Source: Trichodelitschia bisporula
Lineage: Eukaryota
NCBI GenBank assembly: GCA_010356995.1
Contig: ML996704.1
Coordinates: 124,001 to 188,000, forward strand
Length of the DNA stretch: 64,000 bases
Direction of reading: 5' to 3'
The translations under genes and the position numbers were made by a program. Under the pieces are notes generated by a model that was not told the origin of the DNA, did no database searches, and was given only the letters and a program-made list of their open reading frames with translations. Of the stretch, positions 1-64,000 are shown piece after piece. How positions within the stretch are numbered: the first letter of the stretch is position 1; each line of letters opens with the position of its first letter.

Positions 1-1995
1 TTCAGATTCATCCGCGGTGGAGGCTGTTCCCAGGGAGTTCCTCCATGGCAGGGAATGGAGGTTCCTCGTGAAAGCTGGCGCTTATCAGCAAACTGTGGCG
101 CGCTCGGCATGAGAACGGGACGCGCAACTCATTGGCTTTGGCATTGCAATGATGGATGGGCTCTTCGATGCGACAGGAACGGATACAGCTAATTGGGAGA
201 AGCAGCGGTATCCATGGAGAGTTTCGTGAGAAGACATCCAGTTCCCACAAGCGGCGCCTCGAGGCGGACCATACTTGCAAGGACGATTTGTCGAGGTTCA
301 TGGTACGCTCACCGTCCCGGTCATGGACCCATAAATTTCTGAGCCATACGTTGAGCAACCCAGGAATATATCCGAAGATGAGAGGTAGTCTGGAGCCGCA
401 TGCTCCAGCAGATGGCCATGATGTTCCAAGGGTTCGGACCAGGGCCGTCCAATCTGCGAAGCATGTCGGCGAGGTGAGCTAGACATGGAGGCAGACGTCT
501 GGGCTTGTTGTCTCCATCGGCCATCACAGGCTAGACACATGTACCGTGGGTGAAGACATAGGGAGCCCGCCAGAGCGTCGTCGGATTCAGTGAGAGCATG
601 TTGGGCGCGGCATGTCCATGGACATCCTCGGAATCAACACTCCGAAGAGCGATATCGACACTATTGTCTACTCTTAGCATACGAAATGGTGCATACGGAC
701 GGGAAGGAAGTCCAGACGGATCAGTGATACCTAGCTCCACATCACCAATCAGCTCCCGCACACTAGCGACTTCGACGCCCCAAGCTTCCCATTGCATGGT
801 CGCTTCGAGGTTCGTCGGCAGGCATGTGATGCATGGGCTCCACCACCTCTCCCGTCGCGCTGCAGAAGGCTGACATTGCTTTTGCAGCACAGTGGTAAGG
901 CTTATCGCATCCCAGGATGTTGGCGACATGGTGCGGGAGCTCGTCATCCGGCACCACATCATCGCGAGCTACCCCTCTCGCGTTCGTCGTCGATCGCCCC
1001 GCACCGGGCGGGCGGACGGCTGAGCTGCTGCCATGTGGGAGGGACCGGTTCGGCTGTTGCGTCCTGCCTCGCGTTGGTGGACGGGCGATAGGGCCAAAGT
1101 TGGTCGGCGATGATCGAATGAGGCGCTGCGGGGAAGCTCAATGGTTGGCGCTTGCTATGCTTGCTGTCCCGGTTTTTATAAACAAGGCATCAGCCTTGTA
1201 GCAATGCTGGCAGGCTGACAGTCGTGGTGGGGGAGCAGACGGGGTATTTGAGGGGGTCGCCGGCCCACGGGCTCCAACGGTCACCAGAAGTGATCGTGCA
1301 GTTGTGCGGAGAAACTCCGAAAACCCTTGTCGATCGTAAGATCGTCTTTGCACCTCTTCACTCTGCATGATTGCATGCATGTCATCGTCTGAGAAATCTC
1401 CCCGCGAACGAACGACGTCAAAATAGGGCGTGGAAAAAAGAAACGGTCGTTCCCCACTGCCGCCTTCACGCCATCTATATCTGGGGGCGCCCCGGTATCA
1501 TCCGTTCACCGACCAGACCCTTGCCCATTCAACTAGCCTAGCTCCGCCGCATTGCTACCATTTCTTAACCCTCACAACCCCACACTCTCGATCGTGCCCG
1601 GGACCTGCAGCAAGATTCTCGAGGCCCAAGACACCAGCTGTTGAGCTGCACAGTGTGCGGCATAGCAAAATATTTGCCGCCGACCGTGGCTCCCCTCACT
1701 TCTTCCCTCGGTTTCGGGTACTCTCTGGCTTCACCTCGCCGAAACCACCGGCCTCCAGATCACCGTACCCTTGTCGGGTAGAAACGGAAGAGAACGAACG
1801 ATCGCCTGGCGCGACCACCTCCTCGACTACATCTATCTCACGCTCGCCCATGGATTTATGAGAGCCTAGATCGACAGCGACTCAGGCTCCTGGCATTTCA
1901 GACGGTACCTGGCTGCCGTCTGGCCGCGTCTTGTCTCACCCACAGCTTTTTCCACCCTCGACAAATCTACCACCTGATCTCTTCAACCGCCCACC

Positions 1996-48440: not shown

Positions 48441-51299
48441 TCAAAACCCCTTAACAACCCCCCCAGCAACGCACCGAACGTCCCACCTCCAACTCTCCCC
48501 GCCCCTCCCAGCCGTCCTCCCCGTAAACCACCCCTCAGTCCAGCGTCTCCACTCCCCCTCCTCAATCCTCTGCCTGCGAATAAAAGTCGGACCAAGATCA
48601 AACTCCTCCCCAACCCACTCTTTCTCCTCACCCAGCGCCACACCGCCCCCAGTAGACGCCCCCTCATCAGCCAGATCTTCAATCCCGGCAAACGGATCCT
48701 CTTCCTCCTCAACCGAGACACTCCCCGGCCCGCCGCCAAACCCGCCATCGCTGATGCCGGCTAGCTCGCCTTTGGCCGCAGCGGCCATAGTACGTGCGTC
48801 GACCTTGAGCCACTTCATGCGATCGGGGTCGAACACCATCCCGCGTTCGATACGCGGCCCTTTGGAGCCGCCGTTGACCTGCGCAATGAGTGCGGGGCGC
48901 GGCGGACTGGCGTTGTTCTGGCGGGGCGCGGGAGCAGCGGTATGATGGGCCGTGTAGTTGGGCAGGGTGTGCAGCGCGGACGTCAGAGCCGATGGGGTGG
49001 AATGCGTATGATGATGGTGAGCGTTGTTGTTCCCGTGCGTAGGATGAAGCGGGAGCGTCGATGTAGACGGATTATCAAACCCAGAGAGCGCGTGGTCGTT
49101 GCCCTCCCAGCGGCCGAGGAGGGGGTTGAACGTCATGCCCTTTTCGTCTGCGGCTGTTAGTACACCTTTCGTAAAGTAGATAGGGGACTCACTCTTCGCG
49201 ACACCACCCGTCATCTGCCGAATCAGCACCGGTCCTTTCCGCGGACCACCACCGACACCAACGTCCTTCTTGCGCGCCGCAGTGGGGCTGTTATGCGGGC
49301 TGCGCGCCGCAACCTGCGCCTTCCAATTGATACCCGTCGTAGACACAGGCTCACCGCTACGCGGCCGCGTGCCATTGAGCGACGAATGGCTAACCGCAGC
49401 AAGACGCTGCTCACGCGCATTACGGCTAGCCGCCGTATCGCGAGCAAAACGCGGGGTCGTATCCGGCTTCGAAGCAGGCGCAAAAAGCGTCGGCGTCACC
49501 GGCTTGGGGGCCATGTATGGTCTCGGAGGGTGGAGTGCCTTTACTGTTTGAGACCCGACGGTCAGATTCAACGAGCCACTCGGCTGGTGCGAAGTCGGCG
49601 GCAGAGGCGAGGTGCCCGCGCGCTCGGCTGGGGGCGCCAGGTACGGTTTCGGAGCGTGGACTGGCTTGATAGTGTGAGACCCTGAGGGCAGATTTAGCGA
49701 GCCGCTCGGCTGGTGCGAAGTCGGCGGCAGAGGAGAGGTGCCTGCGCGCTCAGCTCCAGGCGGGTTGAATGTGTTCAGTCCGATGCGGCTGCGACTTGCG
49801 TGGCGCAAAGTACGCGGAAGGGTACGATTGGCAGGCTCCTTCAAAAACTTACTCTCCTTTGTCGCACTCGTCGGCAGGTCGTCAAACCGCTCGAGCTCGC
49901 TGCCATCACCAAACGTGCGCGTCTTCTTGACGTTCAAGGGACGGGTGGCAGCGTTGCGTGCAAGAGAGAGAGGAGCGTGGCCGTGGGCATGATGATTCTG
50001 CGTCTGGCCCGGGTTGTGGCGCCGGCTCGGCGTGTCGACCACATTCTCAATCGACATGCGGCTGAGGGAGCGCGCCAGCGGCGACTGCGGCCGCATCGAG
50101 TGCGCCGAGTTGTCCGATGGGAAGCGCTGATGGCTACCGCTGCTCTTGGTAGCGACATGGTGAGACTGCGACGTCGAGACGCCAGCGGGCAGAAACGGAA
50201 TAGAGGGACGGTTCGACAGCGACGCAGGCGTGCGGTTGCTGAGAACGGGAGCCGAACGCTTCGACCGGAGCAGCTGTGCGCTCGTCGTCGTAGGCGCAGC
50301 ACGGTTCATGCGCGTGATGTTGTGACCGCCAGACTCAAAGACGGGATCCAGCTTGGACCCTTTGAGATTCGCCGGCCGCGGGATGCGCGACGCGCCGAGA
50401 CGCTCGTGGAAAGTAATTGTGGTGGAAGTGGTGCGCGACGGCGGCCTCGTCGTCTTCGGCACCTCGATCTTGACGTTGCGGTTGATCTTGCGCTTCGTGT
50501 CGATGACCTCAGCACCAAAGTCGAGCCCAGCGGAGAAGTCATCATCCTCGACAACAGGTGCGCGAGGTGGAGACGGCGGCGGCGGCACTGGCGATGGTGA
50601 GGGTTGAGGTGAGGGCTCCTGCGGCGCAGATGTCATAGCACGCGCCTGCTCCTTTGCCTCTTGCTCCTGGCGGTGTTTGAGCTTGATCTCGAAGTTGATG
50701 GGTTCGTTGGGCAGGACCAAACCCCCAAGGTCGTCATCCTCGCTCTCGAACGTCATGCAGCTGCCCAAGCTAGGGCTCATAGCCGAGACAGACGAACTCC
50801 GACCGCGATGTTCGTGGCGCGTGCCGCCAAAGCGCACGCCCAAGCTGCCCTCGGCCCACTCCGAGTCAAAGTCGTCATCGGCATTGATTGACACGTTGGA
50901 CACGTTGGACGAGCGGTCGCCAAGCTTAAGCTTTAGGCCGCCGTCAAACGCGCTCGGCGCAGGGCCGAAATCATCGCTCCAGTCGTCGGCAGCATTGCGA
51001 CGGTCCTTCTTCATTCCCAAGCGCTTGATGCTACCACCGAGGAGCGCCGAAGGGGGAATATTGTTGGGGATGGGGATGCCGACTTGCTTCGCGGAGGTGA
51101 CGGCGTGCGACGCGGAAGTCTCGTCGTTTGGAGCTACCAGCACCTGCCATTCCTCATCGGCGTTGGACTCGGAGCGTACTGATTGTCGCGACGAGATGCT
51201 GGGTGTGGCATTAGAGGCGGTTGCTAGCAGCGGAGTTCCGAAGAGATCGCCCTGGAAGTCGACGTCCTCGTCCCAGTTTTCCACGTCGGCGAGCGGCAT
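48441..51299 (-). CDS. byr4: Byr4/Bfa1-like septation initiation network GAP component
   Basis: VENWDED.DF, AGIP-like GIPIPNNIPPSALLGGSIKRLG, WAEGSLGVRFGGT, FGDGSELERFDDLPTS, EKGMTFNP...RWEGN, GMVFDPDRMKWLK, DPFAGIEDL, EEFDLGP.FIRRQ..EE..W. In-frame intron 49148-49192. Confidence 0.88.
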   Translation of the reverse strand: MPLADVENWDEDVDFQGDLFGTPLLATASNATPSISSRQSVRSESNADEEWQVLVAPNDETSASHAVTSAKQVGIPIPNNIPPSALLGGSIKRLGMKKDRRNAADDWSDDFGPAPSAFDGGLKLKLGDRSSNVSNVSINADDDFDSEWAEGSLGVRFGGTRHEHRGRSSSVSAMSPSLGSCMTFESEDDDLGGLVLPNEPINFEIKLKHRQEQEAKEQARAMTSAPQEPSPQPSPSPVPPPPSPPRAPVVEDDDFSAGLDFGAEVIDTKRKINRNVKIEVPKTTRPPSRTTSTTITFHERLGASRIPRPANLKGSKLDPVFESGGHNITRMNRAAPTTTSAQLLRSKRSAPVLSNRTPASLSNRPSIPFLPAGVSTSQSHHVATKSSGSHQRFPSDNSAHSMRPQSPLARSLSRMSIENVVDTPSRRHNPGQTQNHHAHGHAPLSLARNAATRPLNVKKTRTFGDGSELERFDDLPTSATKESKFLKEPANRTLPRTLRHASRSRIGLNTFNPPGAERAGTSPLPPTSHQPSGSLNLPSGSHTIKPVHAPKPYLAPPAERAGTSPLPPTSHQPSGSLNLTVGSQTVKALHPPRPYMAPKPVTPTLFAPASKPDTTPRFARDTAASRNAREQRLAAVSHSSLNGTRPRSGEPVSTTGINWKAQVAARSPHNSPTAARKKDVGVGGGPRKGPVLIRQMTGGVAKSESPIYFTKGVLTAADEKGMTFNPLLGRWEGNDHALSGFDNPSTSTLPLHPTHGNNNAHHHHTHSTPSALTSALHTLPNYTAHHTAAPAPRQNNASPPRPALIAQVNGGSKGPRIERGMVFDPDRMKWLKVDARTMAAAAKGELAGISDGGFGGGPGSVSVEEEEDPFAGIEDLADEGASTGGGVALGEEKEWVGEEFDLGPTFIRRQRIEEGEWRRWTEGWFTGRTAGRGGESWRWDVRCVAGGVVKGF
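49503..49754 (-). repeat. 126-nt (42-codon) intragenic tandem duplication in byr4
   Basis: AERAGTSPLPPTSHQPSGSLNL occurs twice; cggctggtgcgaagtcggcggcagagg is at 49581 and 49707. Confidence 0.9.
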
Positions 51300-52055
51300 C
51301 TTTGCCGGGAGCTTGCGAAGCTGGCGTGTCCGACGCGCAGCAGTCGCGATTGATGGTGTGTCGCAGCTGCAGTTGTTGAGTAGTAAACAAGGTGGTTTGC
51401 GTTGAGGAAGTGGTGGTTGGATAGCTTCCAACTGATGCAGTCGGGTGTCGGAGGTCGGGGGTGTGTGAATGTGGTGGGCGGGTGGAGAAAGTGCGAAAGG
51501 GTGGAGGTTGGGGTTGGGGGGGGAAGGCGGCGGGCGTGTGCTGTTCTTGCTTATCGATTACATAAGGCGCAAACAACGCGACTTGGCGGTCAACTTCCTC
51601 AAGGAGCAGCCAGTAGAGACAGCGATGCAGGTGAACAAGGTGCAGGACAAGCCGAGCAGGCTGCAGGTCAGAGAACGTCAAGGACAGGAAAAAGAAGTAA
51701 AAACACCAAAGACACGCGAAGCTGACGCGAACTGCAAATCCCTCGAACCACCACTTGCGCTGCAAGATATCGCAAGAAAAGCAGAACACAGAGTGACAAC
51801 AAGTCCACGAACGCGACAGACGAGGAAAAAGGATCAAAAAAGGCCACGACTGCAGGCTTCTATTAGAACAGGCAGCCAACAGCGTGTAATTATTTTTCCT
51901 CTTCCCCATGTTTCACCTACATTCCCCTTAAACTCCCTCCGCCGGACCGACATCTCGCCCCTCTACCGTATCGCCAATCTCCAATCCCCAAACCTCATCA
52001 AACGCCTCCCCCACCTTCCCCACACTCTGTCTGCACCTCAAACACTACCACGAAC

Positions 52056-53660
52056 ATGTCCGCCCCAGACGCTCCACGCGGCCACATTGTCAGCCTCCCG
52101 CGCCTGACCTCCGACCCGCCTATCCTCGCCCAGATCCTCCCCTCTGATGTATCCAAGTCCAAGTCCCCTCTGAATCTCCAAATCATCGCCACTGACGGGG
52201 CCCTCGTCTTCTCCGCTACGCGTAACTGACCCCCCCCCCCGGGCTAGCCCATCACTTAACCTATTACTTCTATTAACTCCCCAAGTGACCCCGGCACTCC
52301 TCCCCTCGCTCCGTGCACCCTCCTTCACGGGGCCAGAAACTGATATCGAAACCGCGCTGCGCCGCACGCTGCTTGATGAGACGTTTGGCGATGGCAACAC
52401 CGACAGTGTCGAGCATGCGCTCAAAGGCCTCGAGCTGGTGGTCCCGCACGTCGATGACGATAACCTCCAGCTGGCCTGGCGACTGAACGACGGCAAGAGC
52501 GTCGTAAGTGCCTCATTCCCTCCTCCATCATGACTCGTGACACTCTTTTTGGGTTTCTCTCCATCACGAACATATGAAACCAAATTGGCGATCATTTGTC
52601 GGAGTGGAACGCGTCGCGCGTTTGCAAACAAACAATGGCGCACGGCTATATCATGCCTCTTATACCTCGCGTGTCTCTGTTCCAGCCTCCTCGGCTTTCA
52701 CCTGCCAAACTCGTCTCCACACTCACCTGTACCTCACAGACCCCACTAGCAACCCTCCCCCTCGAAGCAAGTTCAGACACAGAAATAGACCCCCTAGCCT
52801 GGCTCTACCTCTCCACAACCCGGACACAGACCCTCCTCACGCGACTCCGCGAAACCGAGGCCCTCCTCGCAACCCGCAACCGCGCCCTCAACGCCATCAA
52901 AACCGAACTCAGCACTTTCGTTGAACGAAAAAAGGCCCACGATGCCAAACTTCTCGATGGCTTCGCCAAGGTTGTCAACAGCAAAAAGGTCAAGGTACGC
53001 GAGTTGACTCGCGTGCTTGGAGGTGTGAAGATGGAGGGTGGGATTGGGGGAGGAAGGGTGGGCGGTGGAGCGACGGCTGGAGACCCGGGAGAGGCGGCGA
53101 AGGAGGCGACTCCGGATGACGACGACACGGATGCTGATGCTCAAACCACAGCCTCCGACCGCGACGCCGAATCCGCCGAGCCATCGGCCTCGCCTTCCCC
53201 ACCCCGCTCAGCTAAAGCAACGCGCACCAAACCCCCCACCAGAGCAGCCAAAGCAGCCAAAGCTACCAAACCGCTCGCCAAATCTACGCGCACCACGCGT
53301 GCAACACGTGCATCGCGCGGCACCAAACGCGCCTCCGTCCCCTCCGACTCAGAGTCCGACTCAGACGATGCCTTCGAAGCCCTTCCCTCGAAGTCCGCCA
53401 AGGGCAAGGAGAAGGGCGATGAGCCCATGCCTGATGCTGAGCCCGAGTTGCCTCCGCCGCGGAAGCTACCTTTTGGGAAGATTGGTGGGAAGGGGAGGGG
53501 GACTGCGCGGGGTGCGAGTGCGGCGCCCGAGCCCGTGCTGAAAACTGAACCTCTTTCTACGGGTAAAAAGGCGCCTCCAGCGAGGAAGGCAGCTCCAGCA
53601 AAGAAGGCGACCCCGCCGTCGGTGGATGAGGATAGTGAGATGACGGATGATGAACTGTAG
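52056..53660 (+). CDS. XRCC4: XRCC4-like NHEJ factor (head domain, coiled coil, disordered tail)
   Basis: LNLQIIATDGALVFSATL, LATLPL...EIDPLAW, coiled coil ending LLDGFAKVVNSKKVKVREL (XRCC4 F..vLN.KK.KIR), acidic end EMTDDEL. Introns ~52222-52285 and 52504-52739. Confidence 0.75.
52528..52653 (+). ncRNA. Candidate intronic structured RNA (H/ACA-like hairpin-hinge-hairpin)
   Basis: Stems tcgtga/tcacga and aacgcg/cgcgtt, ANANNA (aaacca) between them, ATA near the 3' end; lies in an intron about 5 times the local norm. Confidence 0.35.
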
Positions 53661-54148
53661 CTCCTAGTCAACGGGATGCTGTGAACGGGGGGACATGAGA
53701 GGCACGAAGTACGAATGCTGAACTGACGAGGGTGGGCGGGTTTGAACCTTGAGCTTTATTTTGCGTGTTGAATCGGCAAGGCTGCTTGTTAGCGTGTGTC
53801 TGGAAACAGCATCTCCCACCGCGGGCTACATATGCGCGTATGTCAAAGTTCGACGGGTGCGATGTCCCCGTTGGATATCCTGCGGGAGCATCAATGAGCG
53901 ATGAGTGTAAAAATGACTGTAAAAATGCTGTCGATGAATTGTCCAAAGGCTTTTATAGCCATCGCCCAGAAAAAAAAAGGGCAGTCACAACCAGCATCCC
54001 TGCTCGAGCCGAATGATGCTGAAGGTCACACGAAACCGGGGTTTTAAGTCTCACCTCGATCATCAAAAATCGGTACCTGCAGAAGGCGCGATCATCCCAT
54101 CGAGGCTCACGCATTCAGGGACAAAAGGACGAAAAATAGGTATCAGGA

Positions 54149-54237
54149 TGGTCAATACGGGGGTCGAACCCGCGACCTTGGCGTATACATGAAGACTCAT
54201 ATTAGCACCACGCTCTAACCAACTGAGCTAATCGACC
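54149..54237 (-). tRNA. tRNA-Ile(AAT) with 15-nt intron
   Basis: GGTCGAT TAGCTCAGTTGGTTAGAGC G TGGTG CT AAT A [TGAGTCTTCATGTAT] A CGCCA AGGTC GCGGG TTCGACC CCCGT ATTGACC A; an oligo-T Pol III terminator follows. Confidence 0.95.
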
Positions 54238-54403
54238 TGATTGATGGGTGGGTAAAGACTACATAAATATGTGTAGCAAAAATGCATTATTCTCCGTTCA
54301 GAGAACATTTCGAGCTCTGCGATACGGGCGATTTCACGAGTAACAGGACCACGATCTCTCTTCGCTTTCACGCATCATACACCTATCCAGGTACCATCTA
54401 TCC

Positions 54404-57400
54404 CTACCACCCCTCAACCTGCACCGCCGCCCCCCTCCCCTCCCCAAGCCCTACAACAACCCCACCCACCCCATCCACAACAGCACACTCCACAACCCCC
54501 CCAACCTCAGTCTCACACCCCTCCTCCCCCGCCCGCCCCACCCCCCTAACCTCCACCCCCGGAACCGGCAACCTGCCCGCCATCAACGGCACAAGGGGCA
54601 CCGCCCACTCCTTGCACTCCCCCTCCTTCGCCCAAAACCGCCCCCTCCTCATCCCGCCCACAAGCCACAAACCCGGCGGCGCCTCGATCTCATACACAAA
54701 TTCCAACTTCTCCGGCATAGGGCCAACATCCCACCGGCGCGTTTGCACGATGCGTAATGTTGCGGGGATTAGCGTGCCGGTAGTGTATACACCCCCGCTT
54801 GGCGCAGGAAGATCGAGGACGGCGGTGTGCAGCACGCGCAGTCGCGGGAGGGGGACTTTGATCGTTACGCGCCGGGGGTCTGGGTGGTTGGGCAGCAGGC
54901 CCACCCACAGGCACGCTTTATGCCATTCCTCGAGGTACTTGCGAAGCGGCCCCGCGGTGCTAGGCGGGAGAACGTCGACTAGGGATTCCCAGGCCATGTC
55001 CGCGAAGGGCGGGACGCGTACGCGGGACAGCAGCGCTACTTCTTCGTAGTCGGCTGGCGTGTAGATTTGCCGGACGCGATCGACGAACGCGCGGCGCAGC
55101 AGGCCAATCAGGGGGTGGAAGGGGCTGGCGAACAGGGGTGATGCGAAGTTCGCGCTTAGTGAGGACAGGACGACATCTTCGAGCACGCGGTAGTCGACGG
55201 CTAGGGTTAGGGGTTTCTCATCGGCGGCGGGCTGGCGGGGCGGGGTGCCCTCGGCCCTGGCGATTTGGCGGATTTGGTACATTAAGGTTGCGGGTTGGGC
55301 GGGGAAGACGGTTAGCGGTGTAGGCGCGACGGGGGGCGCGGTGATTGCGAAGCGGTCTGTGCCGGTGAGGGAGACGGAGAGGATGTCGAGCGGGATGGGT
55401 TTTGAGGTGCGGATGTTGAAGCGAGAGTAGAGGAGGGTGGATTTGAAGAGGTCGTGGACGTTGACGTCGAGGGGGAGGTCGTTGGTTATGGTGGGGGAGG
55501 AGATGTAGTCGAAGACGCCGTGGGGAGTGGTGTATTTTATGTCGAGCTTGAGGGAGACGTCGGGGATATTGTCTTCTAGGTCGTAGGGTACTTTGAAGAC
55601 GAGCTTGCTGCGCAGTGGAAGGGATGAGAATTCGATGACGCCGGGTGCGGATATCTTCTTTAATTCTCCGTCGCCGGACACGTATACTGTAGATGCTGTG
55701 CGAAGCCGGAGACCGCCGGTGGCAGAGCGGATGTGGACTTCGGCTTTCTGGATCTCGTTCCAGCCACTCTCACAGGCAATCTCCAGCGTCCGAGGCTGGT
55801 CGATGAAGATATGCCTCGATAGCGCCGCAGTCACATGAAAGGCTTCCGGGGCAGGATAGCACAGGATTCGCGCCTTGATAGGTGTCGTCATCGTCTGATG
55901 CGAACCGGGAAGGTTGAGAGCCGCCTTTTCGAGGCCCGTCGGCTCGTGCACAAAGGCGATCTTGTTGGCCTTGAGCATGACCTTGTCGACGACGAAGGTA
56001 CCGTCCGTGGTAACCTGCAATGTCAGCGACTTTCGCCACTTTCGCGAAACCCTGGCCGCTTACATTCGTCCCAACCTCAACCCAGTTGACGCCCTCCTTG
56101 AGCACCGCCGCTTCCGCGCTGTCAAGCCAAATCTCTCTACCGCCCGCCGGTATACTCCGCAGGCGTACGCGCGCCGCATCAACCTTCAAGTTGCCAGACA
56201 GCAGTTGCCGGACCTTGACCCGCAGCATGAATCCGTCACGGTCGTCTCTATGCTTGATATACGGCTCCACCTCCACATACTCAAAGTACTTTTCGGCCGG
56301 AATGGATAACTCGTACGGCAGTTCCTTCGAGCAAGTGACGATCTCTTTCAGGAGCTGCTGCCCTTCGGCCTCGCCGCTCCGAAGCCCTTTACTTGAGTTA
56401 CCGCGCCGGCGGGCAACGATTTGCGCGAGGAGGGCGAGCAGGGCGCGCACATGGTCATCCTTGCGGTGCAGTTTCGCAAGGCAGGCGGCGTGGACTTTAA
56501 GCAGGACTGTCTCGATGGCGCTCCATTGGTGGGAAGAGTAAAGCGGAGTGACACGGCTGAGGTAGTTGGCTGCGCTGACATAGTCACCCGAATCGCTGCG
56601 AGAAATTAGCCTACGTAGACATGAAGCGCACAACTTACTATTTGATCAGCGCCAAATCGGCAGTGAGCATCTCAACAACCTTCGTACTCCGAGTGGCAAG
56701 GACGTGGTCAAGTACCATGTTCGTGAGTTTCTACACCGTTAGCTTCAGCTTCATTGCATCGCGAAGCACCCACCTCATAGACCTCCCTCAGATCTCCAAG
56801 CGACTGTGTAGCACGGATCATGTCGCTCTGACACACGCCAGCGAGGCTTTTCTCCTCTCCGTCCTGACTCTCCGCATCCTCATCCAAGTCCACGTCCTCC
56901 ATTCCGTCTTCCTTTGCTCCCTCAAATCGGCCAAACCCGACTTCCCAGCCCCGCACCTGCCCAACCCGCTCCAACACCCGTCGCTGTAGCAGCCCCAGTT
57001 CCGCCCGCCGCCCGGCCAGCGTCTCCAGGTCAGACGCGCGGTCACGGGAGAGCATGCGCGAGTCCGATGCCAAGGCCGCTTGCGCGAGCCTGTCGAATAT
57101 GGCCTGGGACTCGTTCTTGGAGAGATTTTGGGAAAGTGAGCTGGATCGCGGCGGATGTGACGGGTCCACAGGCTGGCGACGAGCCACAGCAGATACGGTG
57201 CGCGTAGTGGTCTCCTCGAGGAGCTGTTGTGCGACGGCATATGTCCACGATGAGACCAAGTTATCGATTAGGGTATCAGAAGCAGAAACATCATAGGTCC
57301 TTGAACTGGTCTCGTGAGCATGTTCCTCTGCGGCAAGAATGCGGCTATACATACGCCGTGTGCAAGTCAGCCCGCATTAACCGCGACACTGAGCTGATAA

Positions 57401-58701
57401 AGGATGATCCACGAGCACAGAGATCCGACAACGGTCCTAAATCCTCAGTCTCGAGGATGTACTGTGTACGCGCCGCTTCATCCTGGATGCTGGCGAGCTC
57501 ATCGGAGTGCGGAATACCCATGCGCAGCAGGATGGCCATTTGCCGCGCGAAGATGTAGCACTTGAAGTCGAATATCGAAATGTTGTTTGAGAGCACCAAC
57601 TGGCGGTAATTTTTCCTCTTTGCAGAAATCGGCCGCGCGAAGAGGTTCTCCAAGGCGGCGTCCCCTTCCCCCTTCGCACCCCATATGAGAAGATCCTTGA
57701 GCTCCTCGGTGCTCCCCAAAAAGGAATCGCTCCGACGAGAGCCTCCTTCTTCGCTGAGCTCCCGAATTGCTGTGTCGAGACCGAGACTTAGTTCATCATA
57801 TCCCATGAGCGCATCCTCCACCAGCCCTGCACTCTCGAATCCGCGCGCCAGGCCCTCCTTGAGCACAAAGAACGTGCAAAAGTTCCACCCAGGTAGCGAT
57901 CGCTGAGCATCGCGCTCTCGAATGTCTTCCTCGTACTGCGAGACGCGCAGATTGAACGACGCGAGAATGAGCGCCTTCATCTTCGCAACCACATCTTGCC
58001 ACGCCTCTTCCCGCAGTTTTGCACCACCCTCCTCATCCACATTTCCAAAAGCCTCTCCATCAGGCACAGCCGAGGGGTCCAACCGCACCTGCGCCACGCG
58101 GTCCATGGCCCCCTTGCCTCCAATATTGAAGTCCGCCTTCAGCTTCTCGAGGATCGAACTCCCGCCCCGCCCCAGTACGCCCTTACTCTTCTCGCCGCCC
58201 TCCTTACGCGCGCTAGACTGCACCGCAGCCAAACTCCCCGGCATGACAACATGCAGCACAAGCCACTCGCACGCATCATGATTCTCCTGACCACCGCGCG
58301 CCGCGCCCGCCGACGCCGACGCCGGCCCCAGCGAGCGCACCCACTCACGCACAGCCTTACGCGCCGACGCCTTGTACGTATCCGAGTCGTCGCAGCGCAG
58401 GAGGTATATCTTCAAGTAGGGCGTGCGGCGCAAGCCCGGGATCTGGTGACGGCGGTCATCCTGCACGGCGCCCGCGGCGCTGGGGACGAGCTCGACGTGC
58501 AGGAAGTCGATGGAGCGGAGAGGGCGGGTCGGCGATTTCCAGTGCAGGTTGCGCAAGGGGAGGTGTGCGCGGAAGGTGTCGGCGACGAGGGGGAAGAGGT
58601 TGGAGGGGTCGGCGTATTCGACTGCGGAGTGTTAGCTATGCGAAGATTGGTGCGCTGGACGGACCGGTGACTTTGGAGATGGGGGCGCTGCCACCTTCCA
58701 T
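54404..58701 (-). CDS. TRS130: TRAPPII subunit Trs130/TRAPPC10 (TMEM1 family)
   Basis: VTVEYADPS.LF, PLRNLHWKSPTRPLRSI..L.V, RRHQIPGLRRTPYLKIY, QYEEDIRE.DAQRSLPGWNFCTFFVLKEGLARGFE, LPLDVNVHDLFK, WLVGG.RRG.F. About 5 short introns. Confidence 0.92.
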
Positions 58702-59105
58702 GGTGAGGCTCAGGAAGATTATGAATTAAGCGGAGGTATCATTTCCGGGCTGCAATGGTAGAAAAGGTTCCACGGCAGCATGTGCGTGAATGCGATGTCG
58801 CCGTTTCTGAATGGACATCACGAAACGCGTCTGTGGCGCATGTGTGGCGCAAGCGAGCTTAGATTCCTGCGTACGGTATTCCGTACATCCGTACAACGTC
58901 AACGACGTCGAATGCTATCCAACAAACATCTTTCTTCTAGCGATGTCTATGCTCTCGACGTTCGAGAAAAGGTATTGTAAGATGAGCTCGGAGGCTGATG
59001 CTGTTACCCAAATAGTCTATTCGCTGGTCTTTTGTCGATCCTCCGCTACAATCCCACCTCTGCTTCGTCTCGAATTCACCCCCAGGACTCAAGAATGAGG
59101 ACGCT

Positions 59106-61310
59106 CTACTTCATCCGAATCGTCTTCACTACTGGCGCTGCCCTTTCCAGAGTCAATCCCAGCTCCACAAACAGCCGTACCTTGGTGACCCTCATAGCCA
59201 CATCTCCGTCCCACTCAAGCAGAAGCATGTAAACGTACTCCCGAACCGGGCCGTCCGCATAATTCTTCAATCGCAGCCTCTCCACCACCAAGAAGTCGTA
59301 CATCCCAGTCGTTAACGTATTGTGGTGAGGGCTATTCCGCTCCCTCACTATCCCCAGCATCTCATCCGTCCCTGGCACGAATGCCTCACTGAACGGCTCA
59401 CATCGAATGTCCAGTCTGATCACCGTCGCCTCAACAGTAAGGACCCGCTCATCGGCATCAATGTCGACAAATCGCACCACCCTGTCTGTCCCCAGGTCTT
59501 CTCTCCTAGACATTTTGGGCTTGACGCGGCGCATCAAATCCAGTGGATCCGAGTAGGTTACACGTCCTGCCCATCCCGCCCAGGACCACGAAGGGAACGC
59601 CGGCCGGCGCTTGGGCTTGACATCCCAGGGATGGAACCAGCGTAGCGCCTGCGGGAATTCTCGCAGCGGGAGCCCACACACAAAGTCAGCAGAGAAACAC
59701 GATTTGCGCAGCCAATGGAGGATCCCCCGAAAGGCGTTCAGCGAGTCCGAGTCGTGGGTCATGCGCCGCTCGGTATAGAGAGCCAAGGTGCTGCGGTATT
59801 CGGTCTCAGCAGGGAGCGATTCGTCCCTGGATGGCTGCGATTGTAAAGCTTGAGTTGCCTGTGCATGCACTTAGCGCCGTCTATCGCTCTTTAAGCGGCT
59901 TACTTTCAGCGCATTGGTGCCCTCCGCGCGAGGCCCTCTCAAATATCCCCCCGGATCAGTCTCTTCATCGACAGCTTCGCAGAAGGCCGATGAATTGCAG
60001 AGAAAGTGAACCTGATCTCGCGCGAATATCAGCCTACAGCAGGCGAAGAAGATCTCCTGAACCGTCCAAGCCCGCGTCCAATATTCCGACCCGTACAGCG
60101 CAGCTTCATATACCGGACCAACCGTTCGGAAGTCTCTACCCTCAATCCCATCCACCGCCTGCGGTACCCGTGCTAAGCTCACCCCCGGAAGCCCCGTGTT
60201 TGAATGCTTGCCACTGACGGCGATAATCGTCGTCATGGCGCATGAGTAGATCACATCCATCATCGCAAGCTGCGTCTTCTGCTGCGGCGTGGGCTTCTGA
60301 TCGACGCAGAGCGCATCGACCTGTAAAGTCAGCGCGTCCTTCGAAGACGGAGAACGTACCCAGAGGTATTTGCATCCCAGCCCCTTCGTCACCGTAATCG
60401 CATCCTCGATGGTCTTGGGCAGTGTGCCAGCCTCTAGCGCTCCATCTGCCGGATGAATCCCACCCCACACATAGCTCAGCGCCACGTACTCGCACGGCGA
60501 CGGACAGGGTACGACACGCCGGGCTTGCACGTCGATCATGCGCGTGGTAGGAATGAGCGCATCATCCCACGTTCGGCGACAGTGGGTGTCGTGGCTTTCG
60601 GCACACTGCTTCAGCCAGTGCCTGAGCCGCGCGTAGTCCACAGTCGGGTCCACAGGCCGCGCCCGTAGGGCCAGCCTCTCATCCCTGAAACCCGGCGCAA
60701 CCGACAGGCTGAAGGCATCATTTACCGCGTCCCTCATGACCATAGAGTCCAGCTCCGTCATACGCGCCTGGCTCTCACGCTCTGAAGTCACAACCCCAAA
60801 CCACACGGCATACTTCGCCTTGACCTCGGCCGGGACATCCCGCTCAGAATTCGACTGGCGATCATACGCCGGGAATGGCCGAAGGTAAAATGCGCGTTCC
60901 GCCAGCTCATACTGCTCATCCAGCTCGTCGGTCGGAAAGACGTAGAAAATGAGGCGGCACAGCGGACAGTCGGAGCGTATATCCAGACTCTTAAACTCCC
61001 CGAGGTGCAGAGTGTGCGCGAAGAGCTGGCGCTTTAGATCGTTGGTTAGGGTATGCGTCTGATTGCTATAGAGGTCCATGCGTTCTCCATATGCGCTTTC
61101 GTCCATTAGTGTGCTGAGCGAGCACTTTTCCAGAAGTGGATACGCCGCGCAGCGTAGACAGAGGTTACTACTCGCGGCACGGTAGGAGGCCAGCAGTGCG
61201 GCTTCTTGCGCCTTGTCGAAGGTGGGTTTCGGGGTCGGAGATGTCCAGCGGTGGCAGAGAGATGTGGGGTGGCCTGGGGTGCGGCAGTAGAGGCAGAGAG
61301 TGGTTGCCAT
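59106..61310 (-). CDS. HET-domain (heterokaryon incompatibility family) protein with N-terminal CCHC zinc knuckle
   Basis: RMIDV...EYVALSYVWG...LPKTIEDAITVT..LG.KYLWVDALCVDQ...MDVIYS.A..TIIA, WTRAWTVQE, YTER.MT.DSD.LNAF.GI, FPSWSWAGW. Introns 60321-60359 and 59859-59903. Confidence 0.92.
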
Positions 61311-61749
61311 GGATGCTTGTGTAGTGCTGTCACCGGCTGAAAGAGGGGTGGGCTGGGTTTTTGCGAGGACTTATAGCTTCAGTAGTGCGGATGGATGCTC
61401 CTCCAGTGCTCTTCGGAGAAATTACGATGCCAGCCTTGAATGAGGGGCCAAGCTGACATGGGAATCGTCGACAATACATCCGGAGGCGCCCCGCGATGCA
61501 TGGTCAAATGAATGAGGCTGTGCCGTTGGCAGCCTCTGACTGGCAGGGCTTTGTCTCCGGCTTCGCTTAACTTCACGTCACGGCAGCCGGTCGTCCTTCT
61601 TAAGTACCGAGCAAAGTTTCGGCAGCTCTGTGCATTTTTGAAACGCCATGGAGGATGTTCTAGTATTCGGAAGGTTGCTTCCTCGTCTCTGTACCCAGTG
61701 TCTGATTTTGACGTCGTTATGGCTTCGCTCCGCACCTAATGAAAGCATC

Positions 61750-61950
61750 GGCTTGACACGTACAACGGCTAGGGTGGGAAGTGAAAGTTTGACAAAAGAC
61801 GAAGAGAAGAAGAGAGTCAAGAGACGCTCGAGACTAAATGCATGGTGGTGCCAAGTGTCCTCCTATGTACCTTCCCCCCATCACCCGCACATTACATCAT
61901 GTTCCTTCCCGCATAGCAATGCTCCTGCCTTACCAACATCAAGCTCACGT
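61750..61950. repeat. Dispersed repeat copy B (paralogous to ~34840-35040)
   Basis: Same 25-nt core and alignable flanks as copy A. Confidence 0.8.
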
Positions 61951-62039
61951 ACCGAGCTGAAGGATTGCTGGTAAGCTCGGCTGAGAATTATTCTCTGCGA
62001 AACAAGCGTCACATATACTGGTGTCAAGATCCACTTCAT

Positions 62040-64000
62040 GGGTGATGCCTCCGTATTTATCCAACTTTGTCTATTCTAGTTCTAATGGACGTCTAGACAA
62101 GACCGGGCCCTGACGTCCCGTTGATTGCGCATGCCGATGAGTTCTTCACACCACCTACACCTTCCTTGCCCTACAGATAGCACAGATCGAGATCATCCTC
62201 CGGCTGTCCATGAAAAAAAGGCCAGTTGCGACAAGGACTGGACGGTATTCAGGCTAAGTCGGGTTGCCCTAAGATACTAGCCGTCGTCAGTAACACAGTT
62301 ACAAGCAGCCAGTTCAATTTACTCACTAGAAATTTGGACCCGATACCATGGTTGTTCAGCGCGGCTTCGATGATGTGCAGGACGTTGGTGAACTGAAAGA
62401 AGACGTTGCCATGTCCGGTATATATGCCGTTCAAAGCGTGTCCGTTGTCCGGGATTTAGCTGTTTGCCACATTGGTCAGAGGAAGTTGTCGTGGAGAACT
62501 AGTATATAGAAGGACCTCTGCGTTGCCGAGCAGAAAGCATTGGCGGTTGCGGGAGGACCAGGCAGACCTGAAAGACAATGATCGATCTGACGAGCTCACG
62601 GTATTCCTTTCGTCGGCTTCGCCGTCCTCCGCGGCTTCGCGCGCCGTCATGGCCGCTTGTTAGTCGTCTGTCCCATCCTGAGCCATATCGATGACATCCT
62701 GCTTGATCTTGTGGCGCAAACCAGCCTTTTCACTGGAAAGAGGGAGACGCTTGTTGTTATTGGAACCCCGGAAAAAGTATAATTTCCCGCATGCTGTTCC
62801 TGACGACCAGGTGAAGTCTGAACCGTCGGAAGCCATCTCCGTTATATATTTTGGAGGATTGCGGGCAACGGAGCCTCGCAAGCACGAGTACGCAAGTGGA
62901 CCGCAAAACTTCGGGCGGCGAGGCAAGCCCAATGCCTGCTCGCATGATGGCAATGCAGTCGGGGATGATATAGATGTTGGCGGTGCCGATCGTAATGCGT
63001 CAGCGTATTATATGCTAGAATGGTCGTAGAGTCAGCTTGTATTCTCCTTGCATGTCCAGGTCATGATGGCTTCTAGCAAGGTGTGCGAGTATATTCAACG
63101 TCATGGCTGCCGCTGAAAGGGACCTCATAGTTCTCAACAGTCGACAACATACCTTCATATATATTGACATGCGTCGACTTGCGCCTTTCTTGGACGTCTT
63201 CGAGTCTTCGGCACCGGTGTCAGAAGGCCGTGATCCGTTGCTTGAAGCAGTAGGGTAGCGTGGCATGGTGAGGAAGCCCGAGGGTCTTTGCTAGCAGCAA
63301 TCAAAAGCGCAGTCGCTGTCGACATTCGATAGGAAGCCCCGAAATCCGATCCTTGTATTTAAGAATCGGCACACGCGCTTTCGTGATGCAGTTCTCACTG
63401 CCTGGACGAGACGTCCCTTTTATTGTAACCTTGTCTTTGTTGAAGATAACAAAAGATTGGTTGGTATAGAGCGGTTACTATGGATGAGGAGTGGAGAATT
63501 TCATGGTGAGGATGTAAAAGGTTAGGAAATCCATAGACCTCCACATTCAAGTAAAGCCATTTGAACAAGTGAATTGACCCGGTGACATTGTTATTCTAGG
63601 GGATACCGTGCACTAGCAATAACTTTAAACCGCCGCTCGAGGTTGTACCCCAAGAAGCCTCCGGGAAGTATGGTTTGGGAAGGTGCGATGAAGGTTAGAG
63701 TTCCTTCGGGAATGCCAGGACTTTCTGCCTTACCGGAAGGAATATTGATCGGGCGCATCATGGCCTAGCCCAAGCAACCACTAGTCCATTCTTTCGAGAC
63801 CGCATTACAGCAGCACGGCAGTAAGTTCTCCAGAGATATCAAGGCTTCAATGCGCCATACAGTTGTACCTTACACTTTATCAAAACATTCGAGAATGCGC
63901 CTGAAATTAAATCCTCTCAGGCAAGCCCAAGCCAAACCACATCTAAGGTTCGATGCTCATAGGTGCCAGCACGTCGTCCATCTGTGCCAGCTCGTCGTCG
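62040..64000 (-). pseudogene. Heavily degraded SNF2-family helicase relic
   Basis: Collinear motif remnants across frames: YEHRTLDVVWL (Q-motif-like), LLGLG, TLTFIAPS, GT..Q...VCRFL, VFFQFTNVLHIIEAALNNHGIG (FSQF motif), VTVLLTT...LSLN, THR..NQRDVR...SIRTRI. Confidence 0.5.

Follow-up and report, generated by a model that had tools for sequence, protein, structure and literature searches.

By sequence comparison, the gene at 59106..61310 on the reverse strand of the window (the whole 64,000-nucleotide stretch of Trichodelitschia bisporula DNA analyzed here) belongs to a widespread and conserved Pezizomycotina subfamily of HET proteins that is undescribed in the literature searched. Its product starts with a CCHC zinc-knuckle motif. 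We give about even chances to the reading that, in this stand-alone HET effector, the knuckle forms a zinc-stabilized cap over an N-domain serving regulation or recognition, and is not a free nucleic-acid-binding arm.

HET, a TIR-like domain, executes cell death in the allorecognition and immunity of fungi. HET-domain genes number 125–132 in Podospora anserina and 65–69 in Neurospora crassa, and the known incompatibility genes are only a handful of them, the targets of the rest being open, according to the excerpts consulted of PMC10197012 and PMC10890737. The subfamily described here is conserved and easily recognized by its Gag-like zinc knuckle and Cys-rich domain ahead of HET, and its sister clade without the knuckle histidine is a natural built-in comparison. 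Together, these three features offer a mutable handle on regulation and sensing in a stand-alone HET protein.

Gene model, transcript and protein layout

The gene comprises three exons (Table 1) and encodes 706 amino acids; the spliced translation is identical to database entry P0002, a HET-domain-containing protein of T. bisporula. Intron 1 is in frame and free of stop codons, so the raw open reading frame reads through it. Contigs from two public runs (X1 and X2, from one sample of one study, the RNA type of both being only guessed) skip both introns at GT..AG boundaries, with 60320 joined to 60360, and span 58930..61787. The joins across both introns show a spliced gene that is represented in contigs of RNA type. 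The sequence-only reading had proposed confirming the start from RNA, and the knuckle does lie inside the transcript, as contig cover extends to 61787 (X1).

Table 1 Features of the HET gene and its product (window positions; all on the reverse strand).
Feature	Residues or codons	Position	Strand	Remarks
Transcribed leader		61311..61787	-	At least 477 nt; contig cover to 61787 (X1), 61835 (X2)
Exon 1	Codons 1-317	60360..61310	-	ATG at 61310, knuckle, N-domain, first third of HET
Intron 1		60321..60359	-	39 nt, GTACGT..TTACAG
Exon 2	Codons 318-456	59904..60320	-	Remaining HET, including WVDALCVDQ and RAWTVQE
Intron 2		59859..59903	-	45 nt, GTAAGC..GCACAG
Exon 3	Codons 457-706 and stop	59106..59858	-	PSWSW region, C-terminal beta-rich domain
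3' untranslated region		58930..59105	-	Spliced contig cover: X1 from 58930, X2 from 59057
Putative zinc-knuckle motif, CLYCRTPGHPTSLC	6-19	61254..61295	-	CX2CX4HX4C; pLDDT 92-96
Cys-rich N-domain	46-270 (~225 aa)	60501..61175	-	Mixed helix and strand
CLRC pair	51-54	61149..61160	-	C51 and C54 invariant
CPLC pair	115-118	60957..60968	-	C115 and C118 invariant in 68-member alignment
C236-x3-H240-x3-C244	236-244	60579..60605	-	Shortly before HET; C236 invariant, H240 and C244 in at least 90%
HET domain PF06985	275-406	60054..60488	-	Pfam match; span includes intron 1
PSWSW	545-549	59580..59594	-	Family consensus FPSWSxxGWxG
C-terminal beta-sandwich-like domain	~571-706	59109..59516	-	AlphaFold strands 576-705, pLDDT mostly 88-97

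The leader contains six upstream ATGs (61748, 61649, 61635, 61501, 61479 and 61459). The nearest in-frame stop 5' of the start is at 61371, and the ATG at 61310 is the first in frame after it. Past 61835, X2 continues for ~527 more letters that do not match the genomic stretch. We read this extension as a join in the contig graph through a short shared stretch and take no transcript 5' end from it, because the 30-letter loose-end consensus sequences of X2 (61835) and X1 (61796) are absent from the whole window and 61789..61839 is common to other high-depth contigs.

Members of the subfamily follow one order of parts: the knuckle, a short variable linker and a helix, the Cys-rich N-domain, the CxxxHxxxC site, HET, the PSWSW beta-rich region and a C-terminal beta-sandwich-like domain. 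A Pfam search over the whole T. bisporula protein returned HET (PF06985; 97.3 bits against a cutoff of 22.5, E 1.4e-27, profile positions 1–146 of 146) and nothing besides, with no NACHT, NB-ARC, WD40 or other repeats; the part encoded by exon 3 matched no Pfam family at E ≤ 0.01. HET domains share the conserved blocks YxALSYxWG, WxDxxCIxQ and RxWTxQE, and the protein has SYVWG at 279, WVDALCVDQ at 317 and RAWTVQE at 400. The layout first proposed from the letters thus held: the knuckle was found again with perfect CX2CX4HX4C spacing at residues 6–19 (61254–61295), the CxxC pairs, the intact HET domain and the PSWSW region were all located in the 706-residue protein, and HET is its sole Pfam family, in agreement with the noted lack of a NACHT/NB-ARC or repeat sensor. 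The profile check proposed alongside was borne out for HET and not for the knuckle, as the Pfam zf-CCHC models found no match in the T. bisporula protein even at E ≤ 10.

Conservation of the knuckle in the subfamily

Searches at E ≤ 0.001 returned 163 relatives with the 479-residue read-through frame as query and 83 cluster representatives with the N-terminal 270 residues only. Among the 188 relatives collected, 41 keep the full CCHC pattern; these come from three Pezizomycotina classes, and Gly directly precedes His in 39 of the 41. Another 59 of the 188 carry CX2CX9C in place of the CCHC pattern, Gly-His having given way to Glu-Pro. We aligned 68 of the 100 motif-bearing proteins, a set picked for having a motif. 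HET is present in 65 of the 68, as well as in seven of eight odd-length relatives checked (P0002 itself left out).

Eight cysteines (C6, C9, C19, C51, C54, C115, C118 and C236) are invariant in all 68 aligned relatives, and L5 and R10 are found in at least 90% of them. His14 is kept in 36, the other 32 having a residue other than His there, such as Pro, Ser or Gln; among these 32, Glu stands one position earlier in 29. The expectation that homologs would keep all four ligands held for the three cysteines (68/68) and only in part for the histidine (36/68). Across 27 full-length sequences, the frequency of the major residue was 0.60–0.69 in the knuckle, 0.68 in HET, 0.51 in the C-terminal domain, 0.47 in the N-domain and lowest, 0.36, in the linker (residues 21–45). 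When the residues of the protein itself were shuffled 200,000 times, the CX2CX4HX4C pattern arose in 80 cases. Since it is rare in shuffles and conserved in relatives, the knuckle is, judged at the sequence level, not a chance pattern.

In a tree of the 68 aligned members built without the motif columns, the 32 non-His members form one clade (SH-aLRT 98). Because these 32 of the 68 proteins, all in a single clade, have Gly-His replaced and keep the cysteines, the subfamily tolerates loss of the canonical fourth ligand with three Cys retained. The basal forks are weak and ingroup monophyly has a support of 67, which leaves CCHC unsupported as the ancestral state; one change between the CCHC and His-less forms is the only root-independent statement. 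An architecture already common and characterized had been named as grounds for refuting the proposal. It is common, and none of the literature listings and passages searched described a HET-knuckle fusion.

Predicted structures and likeness to known systems

The zf-CCHC family (PF00098) was matched weakly by four of the 68 aligned relatives (best E 0.0026), and one further relative, P0160, reached 17.0 bits against a gathering score of 20.8. A profile of 21 family knuckles gave 27 matches in the PDB at E ≤ 10, of which 19 are Gag or nucleocapsid proteins; Gag, nucleocapsid, RBBP6 and RECQL4-like chains came on top, the best being 2ihx (borderline E 0.016). At such borderline E-values, the family knuckle seems to resemble Gag-type knuckles. 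It shares with the zf-CCHC knuckles of Gag nucleocapsid and RBBP6 the CX2CX4HX4C spacing, the Gly-His pair, and the acidic residue and Pro that flank the last Cys.

There are also differences. In nucleocapsid knuckles, the residues following Cys1 and His are aromatic and stack on bases; here, an aromatic residue was found in 0 of 43 sequences at either position, and Leu, Ile or Val follows Cys1. A near-invariant Arg follows Cys2, where zf-CCHC has Gly. There is one knuckle only, placed right at the N-terminus of a large folded protein, and the net charge of the segment is modest (mean +1.2). Finally, the His is missing from the sister clade, and the score stays under the Pfam cutoff.

In the AlphaFold model of residues 1–270 (pTM 0.81), pLDDT was 92–96 for residues 1–20 and 85 for residues 21–30; in the full-length model (pTM 0.88), the values were 89–94 and 81. 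High pLDDT across knuckle and linker suggests that this element is held in place in the predicted fold and does not dangle, although the confidence of the knuckle can be purely local. A predicted complex of residues 1–30 with residues 31–706 and three zinc ions scored 0.21 against a mark of 0.34, in a run without controls, and counts neither way.

The N-domain has no Pfam family and no solved analogue among the structures searched, a wide VIA-align search with the N-terminal model reaching a best Z of 2.9; failure to name its fold is no proof of a new one. By structure, residues 17–270 matched a HET-protein cluster in the ESM Atlas (TM 0.57, 754-residue representative), and the search of the same atlas by features gave a best score of 0.87, under the 0.9 level for a lead. 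Foldseek with the full model found no PDB match at E ≤ 0.001, and the profile of the 68-member alignment returned only two chance-level rows from the PDB sequences (E 0.83).

Residues 270–437 of the model matched TIR chains (Hydra TRR-2, SARM1, MAL, MyD88 and ThsB) and nucleoside 2-deoxyribosyltransferases weakly (Z 4.8–5.8, all below 8), with 93–112 residues aligned at an rmsd of 3.5–4.5 and 7–13% identity. With these weak Z values, the HET part appears TIR-like at fold level, which agrees with the HET-TIR link stated in the excerpts of PMC10890737 and PMC10197012. The likeness to TIR NADases (SARM1, ThsB and TIR-SAVED) and to the deoxyribosyltransferases may lie in the fold, with little identity in sequence. 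The excerpts of HET reviews searched have no enzymatic activity on record for any HET domain.

Among fungal HET proteins, the closest parallel in layout may be BH (het-B) of Podospora anserina, in which a variable C-terminal domain sets recognition; like TOL, PIN-C and HET-6, BH is a non-NLR protein with HET followed by beta-rich regions (PMC10890737, in excerpt). The C-terminal domain of the T. bisporula subfamily is likewise more variable than HET (0.51 vs 0.68). However, BH begins with HET (residues 1–240, same excerpt), whereas 274 residues precede HET here, and the T. bisporula gene has a TRAPPC10 gene as neighbor and no Bp-like partner gene beside it. The BH-like architecture includes a beta-rich HAD domain and a fruit-body-lectin fold at the C-terminus; the T. 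bisporula model has beta-rich regions at residues 576–705, and matches to HET took up the search with the full model. The HET-E/D/R proteins, which are HET-NACHT-WD40 NLRs, have the HET effector domain in common with the T. bisporula protein and differ from it in their NACHT domain and WD40 repeats; by Pfam, it has neither of these and no other repeats.

Possible roles of the knuckle and setting of the gene

If the knuckle is a cap, it would hold one zinc ion and sit rigidly on the N-domain as a structural or regulatory zinc site. The N-domain would then control HET, holding it in an inactive state or serving as the docking site of a partner or ligand, and HET might execute death through oligomerization and NAD+-directed chemistry, by analogy with TIR. 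This executioner step is an analogy only, because how HET kills is given as unknown in the excerpt of PMC10890737. Two sequence observations speak against a cap: the linker is the least conserved part of the protein, as expected for a tethered module, and most PDB matches of the knuckle profile are Gag or nucleocapsid knuckles, which bind nucleic acid, the GH and D-C-P features being canonical.

The same observations would favor the role proposed in the sequence-only reading, an exposed knuckle that binds single-stranded nucleic acid and, on sensing RNA or DNA from mycoviruses or retroelements, activates HET. The exact spacing, the conserved G-H and (D/E)-C-P residues, the PDB ranking led by Gag/nucleocapsid, RBBP6 and RECQL4-like chains, the four members that touch zf-CCHC and the variable linker all fit such a sensor. 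Still, we consider it unlikely: the Pfam knuckle models fail on the T. bisporula protein, the stacking aromatics are missing, Arg replaces Gly after Cys2, the knuckle is alone and weakly charged, knuckle and linker are predicted with high confidence, and 59 of the 100 motif-bearing relatives, the sister clade, have lost the His while keeping everything else. As an integrated bait, the knuckle would mimic a Gag or cellular CCHC knuckle targeted by an antagonist, whose tampering frees HET; candidate antagonists are mycoviruses, retroelement factors and effectors of competitors. The likeness to Gag knuckles agrees with this, and a role in immunity has been proposed for HET genes, the triggers of most being unknown (PMC10197012, in excerpt). 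Yet the knuckle ranks with the best-conserved parts of the protein, whereas variation would be expected of a bait that follows fast-evolving enemies, and a repeat search of 52–64 kb found no repeat or transposon nearby. A bait seems very unlikely to us. We hold a redox or zinc switch to be just as improbable. In such a switch, the Cys sites of the N-terminal 274 residues (the knuckle, CxxC...CPLC and CxxxHxxxC) would keep the protein inactive until zinc ejection, with oxidants or electrophiles as ejecting agents, triggers HET. Eight invariant cysteines do precede HET and a weaker site is predicted in the His-less clade, but the switch itself is pure inference, and structural zinc sites are common and mostly not switches.

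The motif would be irrelevant if translation began further downstream, for example at M69. In favor of this, position -3 gives the ATG a weak context (GCATCCATGG), the leader carries its six upstream ATGs, and contigs are unable to show transcript starts. On the other side, L5, C6, C9, R10 and C19 vary little or not at all in 68 relatives from several fungal classes, which requires selection on translation of the knuckle stretch, and the in-frame stop and first ATG fit the gene model. A start downstream of the knuckle, which the sequence-only reading had named as fatal to its proposal, is extremely improbable given this conservation at the protein level.

Taken broadly, a working sensor head, whether it binds nucleic acid or mimics Gag, with RNA binding or tampering unlocking a TIR-like HET domain, strikes us as quite unlikely. 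If it were real, these ~700-residue proteins would be the first fungal cell-death effectors described in which a single non-NLR chain is triggered by nucleic acid, and the His-less clade could have been retuned to a different trigger. Should the knuckle bind viral or transposon nucleic acid, there would be a direct link between the TIR-like death domains of fungi and the sensing of nucleic acids.

The gene had been placed at the edge of a decayed, repeat-bearing region. This description found no support: 52000..64000 contains no direct or inverted repeats of at least 25 nt. On the upstream side, no stop-to-stop frames of at least 120 residues occur beyond 61370, and the GC content drops only to 0.48–0.52 at 62–64 kb. 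The downstream neighbor is an intact-looking TRAPPC10/Trs130 gene.

Gene structure and domain composition

The HET-domain gene occupies 59106..61310 on the minus strand and comprises three exons (61310..60360, 60320..59904 and 59858..59106), separated by introns of 39 nt (GTACGT..TTACAG) and 45 nt (GTAAGC..GCACAG). The shorter intron is in frame, and the 479-aa raw open reading frame beginning at ATG 61310 reads across it; a separate 218-aa frame ends at 59106. The spliced translation is identical, letter for letter, to P0002, a 706-aa database protein listed by its source as 'HET-domain-containing protein [Trichodelitschia bisporula]'. The sole Pfam family on the protein was HET, matched over its entire model with E 1.4e-27 and 97.3 bits; NACHT, NB-ARC and repeats were absent from the Pfam results. 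The knuckle, CLRC, CPLC, HET and PSWSW elements named by the sequence-only reading were all present, and its claim that a NACHT, NB-ARC or repeat sensor was lacking agreed with Pfam.

Two public sequencing runs (X1 and X2), which come from one sample of one study and whose kind we guessed to be RNA, both contained 93-94% of the locus's sampled words. One contig per run (58930..61787 in X1, 59057..61835 in X2) passes from exon to exon with the two introns removed precisely at their GT..AG borders; since the contigs join across both introns, the spliced form exists.

Features of the HET protein, with major-residue frequencies computed over 27 full-length relatives
Feature	Residues	Positions	Strand	Sequence	Major-residue frequency
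Knuckle	6-19	61254..61295	(-)	CLYCRTPGHPTSLC	0.60
Linker	21-45				0.36
N-domain (Cys-rich)	46-270				0.47
CLRC	51-54				
CPLC	115-118				
HET	275-406				0.68
PSWSW	545-549				
PSWSW region					0.62
C-terminal beta domain					0.51

Conservation and distribution of the N-terminal motif

Shuffling the protein's own residues produced CX2CX4HX4C in 80 of 200,000 trials, and the stronger argument against a chance knuckle is its conservation. The 479-aa frame had 163 relatives at E≤0.001, many of which, among the 120 matches listed, were ~700 aa long with >90% of the query covered. Residues 1-270 alone (HMMER, no filter; E≤0.001) matched 83 cluster representatives, and in almost all of them the match fell at the N-terminus. 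When the listed matches of both searches were pooled into 188 distinct proteins, the full CX2CX4HX4C pattern was present in 41; 59 others had CX2CX9C, in which the fifth residue from the end is not His, and the 88 with neither motif were fragments or more distant HET proteins. The named CCHC members belong to Trichodelitschia, Venturia and Bogoriella among the Dothideomycetes, to Hypoxylon, Sporothrix, Ophiostoma, Apiospora and Neoarthrinium among the Sordariomycetes, and to Aspergillus wentii among the Eurotiomycetes.

Of the 100 proteins with either motif, 68 went into an alignment numbered by the query, 36 of them having the His and 32 lacking it; those omitted were mainly near-duplicates. 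C6, C9, C19, C51, C54, C115, C118 and C236 were invariant, and L5, R10, R53, H240 and C244 were kept in at least 90% of the proteins. Of the four ligands, the three Cys were conserved in 68/68 and the His in only 36/68. The consensus of the CCHC form is [FY]-L-C-L-x-C-R-x-x-G-H-x-T-x-[DQE]-C-P, and that of the His-less form is R-L-C-[IV]-[FY]-C-R-x-L-E-P-x-x-x-P-C-P, with Glu-Pro in place of Gly-His. A quick IQ-TREE analysis (79 rows, 68 ingroup and 11 outgroup; 313 columns, motif columns excluded) placed the His-less proteins in a single clade (SH-aLRT 98), for which one state change is enough. Because the base of the tree was unresolved and ingroup support was only 67, naming either state ancestral was dropped.

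Across alignment positions 13, 14, 122, 200 and 250, the Gly-His to Glu-Pro replacement is accompanied by three further clade-diagnostic changes: Tyr replaces Phe122, four positions beyond the CPLC pair, Ile replaces Phe200, and position 250 is no longer acidic. As all of these changes amount to a single evolutionary event, their covariation does no more than hint at contact between the knuckle and the CPLC helix. One relative, the 1078-aa P0186, has an SMP-30/gluconolactonase (SGL) domain ahead of its CX2CX9C motif and HET, and is probably two adjacent genes fused by annotation.

The sequence-only reading had allowed that the architecture might already be common and characterised. It is real and fairly common, but full-text literature searches, which did not reach supplementary tables, returned no paper describing a HET-knuckle fusion, and the passages retrieved treat HET and knuckle separately. 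The annotations of all named relatives go no further than 'hypothetical' or 'HET-domain' protein, except for one from Venturia effusa with the automatic UniRef name 'CCHC-type domain-containing protein'. Section 14 of a 2023 review states that a recent evolutionary analysis of HET proteins does not exist (PMC10197012).

Predicted structure and possible role of the knuckle

A full-length AlphaFold2 model built with 47 aligned relatives had a mean pLDDT of 87.6 and a pTM of 0.88 (residues 1-20, 89-94; residues 21-30, 81), and a model of residues 1-270 (68 relatives) had a pLDDT of 85.8 and a pTM of 0.81 (knuckle, 92-96; linker, 85). In the model, a short hairpin and a turn make up the knuckle, and the high confidence of the linker hints that the knuckle packs on the N-domain. 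No solved analogue of the N-domain was recognisable (best Z 2.9; Foldseek and sequence searches empty). An ESM Atlas model matched a HET-protein cluster (representative 754 aa) at TM 0.57 over residues 17-270, knuckle excluded, and more distant HET relatives begin right at the second Cys pair, CxxC...CPLC; the N-domain is thus common to a wider set of HET proteins, with the knuckle an N-terminal addition of this subfamily. For the HET part of the model (residues 270-437), the matches were to TIR domains and to nucleoside 2-deoxyribosyltransferases; they were weak (Z 4.8-5.8) but consistent with the published HET-TIR link (PMC10890737, PMC10197012).

The gene is expressed and spliced with an intact HET domain, whose predicted fold is TIR-like on weak matches, and its N-terminal Cys3(His) motif is, at sequence level, strictly conserved and similar to Gag-type knuckles, with a sister clade that does without the His. 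We favour, with about even confidence, a knuckle that serves as a zinc-binding stiffener of a regulatory Cys-rich domain on a HET executioner. The knuckle would bind one zinc ion and make the N-terminus of the Cys-rich domain rigid; this domain, with two more candidate zinc sites, would control HET through autoinhibition or the docking of a partner or ligand, and HET would kill through TIR-like oligomerisation and NAD+ chemistry.

The motif is zf-CCHC by pattern but not by curated profiles: the HMMER check recovered HET, whereas Pfam knuckle models did not match the protein even at E≤10, and PF00098 touched only 4 of the 68 relatives (best E 0.0026), one further relative scoring 17.0 bits where the cutoff is 20.8. 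A profile of 21 family knuckles matched 27 PDB sequences at E≤10, 19 of them Gag or nucleocapsid knuckles, together with RBBP6 and a RECQL4-like knuckle; the top match, 2ihx, had a borderline E of 0.016, as expected of a profile spanning only 18 residues. Unlike these mainly Gag or nucleocapsid knuckles, the family has Leu, Ile or Val after the first Cys and aromatics in 0/43 members there and in 0/43 after the His, the two places where aromatics of nucleocapsid knuckles stack on bases. The second Cys is followed by Arg in 38/41 members as against Gly in canonical knuckles, and the mean net charge of the 23-residue segment (+1.2) was also counted as a difference.

The idea that the knuckle senses nucleic acid, advanced by the sequence-only reading, seems unlikely to us, and a bait or decoy function is improbable. 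Recognition is, by analogy, likelier to fall to the N-domain and the C-terminal domain, which vary, and the knuckle would be a conserved core element. A redox or zinc switch, which the invariant Cys might accommodate, is just as improbable. That the knuckle lies outside the translated product is hardly credible. Its codons fall within the spliced contigs of X1 and X2; contigs do not show a transcript's 5′ end.

Leader and genomic surroundings

The leader under contig cover (61311-61787, minus strand) measures at least 477 nt and contains six upstream ATGs that begin uORFs only 11-56 codons long; going upstream from the start, an in-frame stop is first met at 61371, and the start ATG sits in the context GCATCCATGG. 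We infer only that such a uORF-rich leader could suit tight translational control, or throttling, of a toxic protein; alternatively, it could represent overlapping transcripts fused during assembly. A CT-rich stretch of ~50 nt (61789-61839, minus strand) is common to other contigs of the runs, one at depth 1062, and there the X2 contig departs from the locus for ~527 letters. As a 30-letter consensus of these letters is absent from the window and the stretch is common to other contigs, we read the extension as an assembly join.

The gene had been placed at the edge of a 'decayed, repeat-bearing' region, which was not borne out, since no repeats of ≥25 nt were found in 52-64 kb, GC (~0.56-0.63) merely dips to 0.48-0.52 at 62-64 kb, the 2.6 kb upstream (61371-64000) hold no stop-to-stop frame of ≥120 aa and no repeats, and the downstream neighbour (54404..58631, minus strand, several exons) is a TRAPPC10/Trs130 trafficking-complex gene (Pfam TRAPPC10_1st, E 5e-58; DUF7077; TRS130_4HB; TRAPPC10). 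This housekeeping gene lies directly downstream of the HET gene. A 1038-aa open frame at 48441-51557 (minus strand; GC 0.58-0.63) had no Pfam family at E≤0.01, and a 360-aa frame at 52578-53660 (plus strand) gave a sub-threshold match to the XRCC4 coiled coil (19.5 bits, the cutoff being 27).
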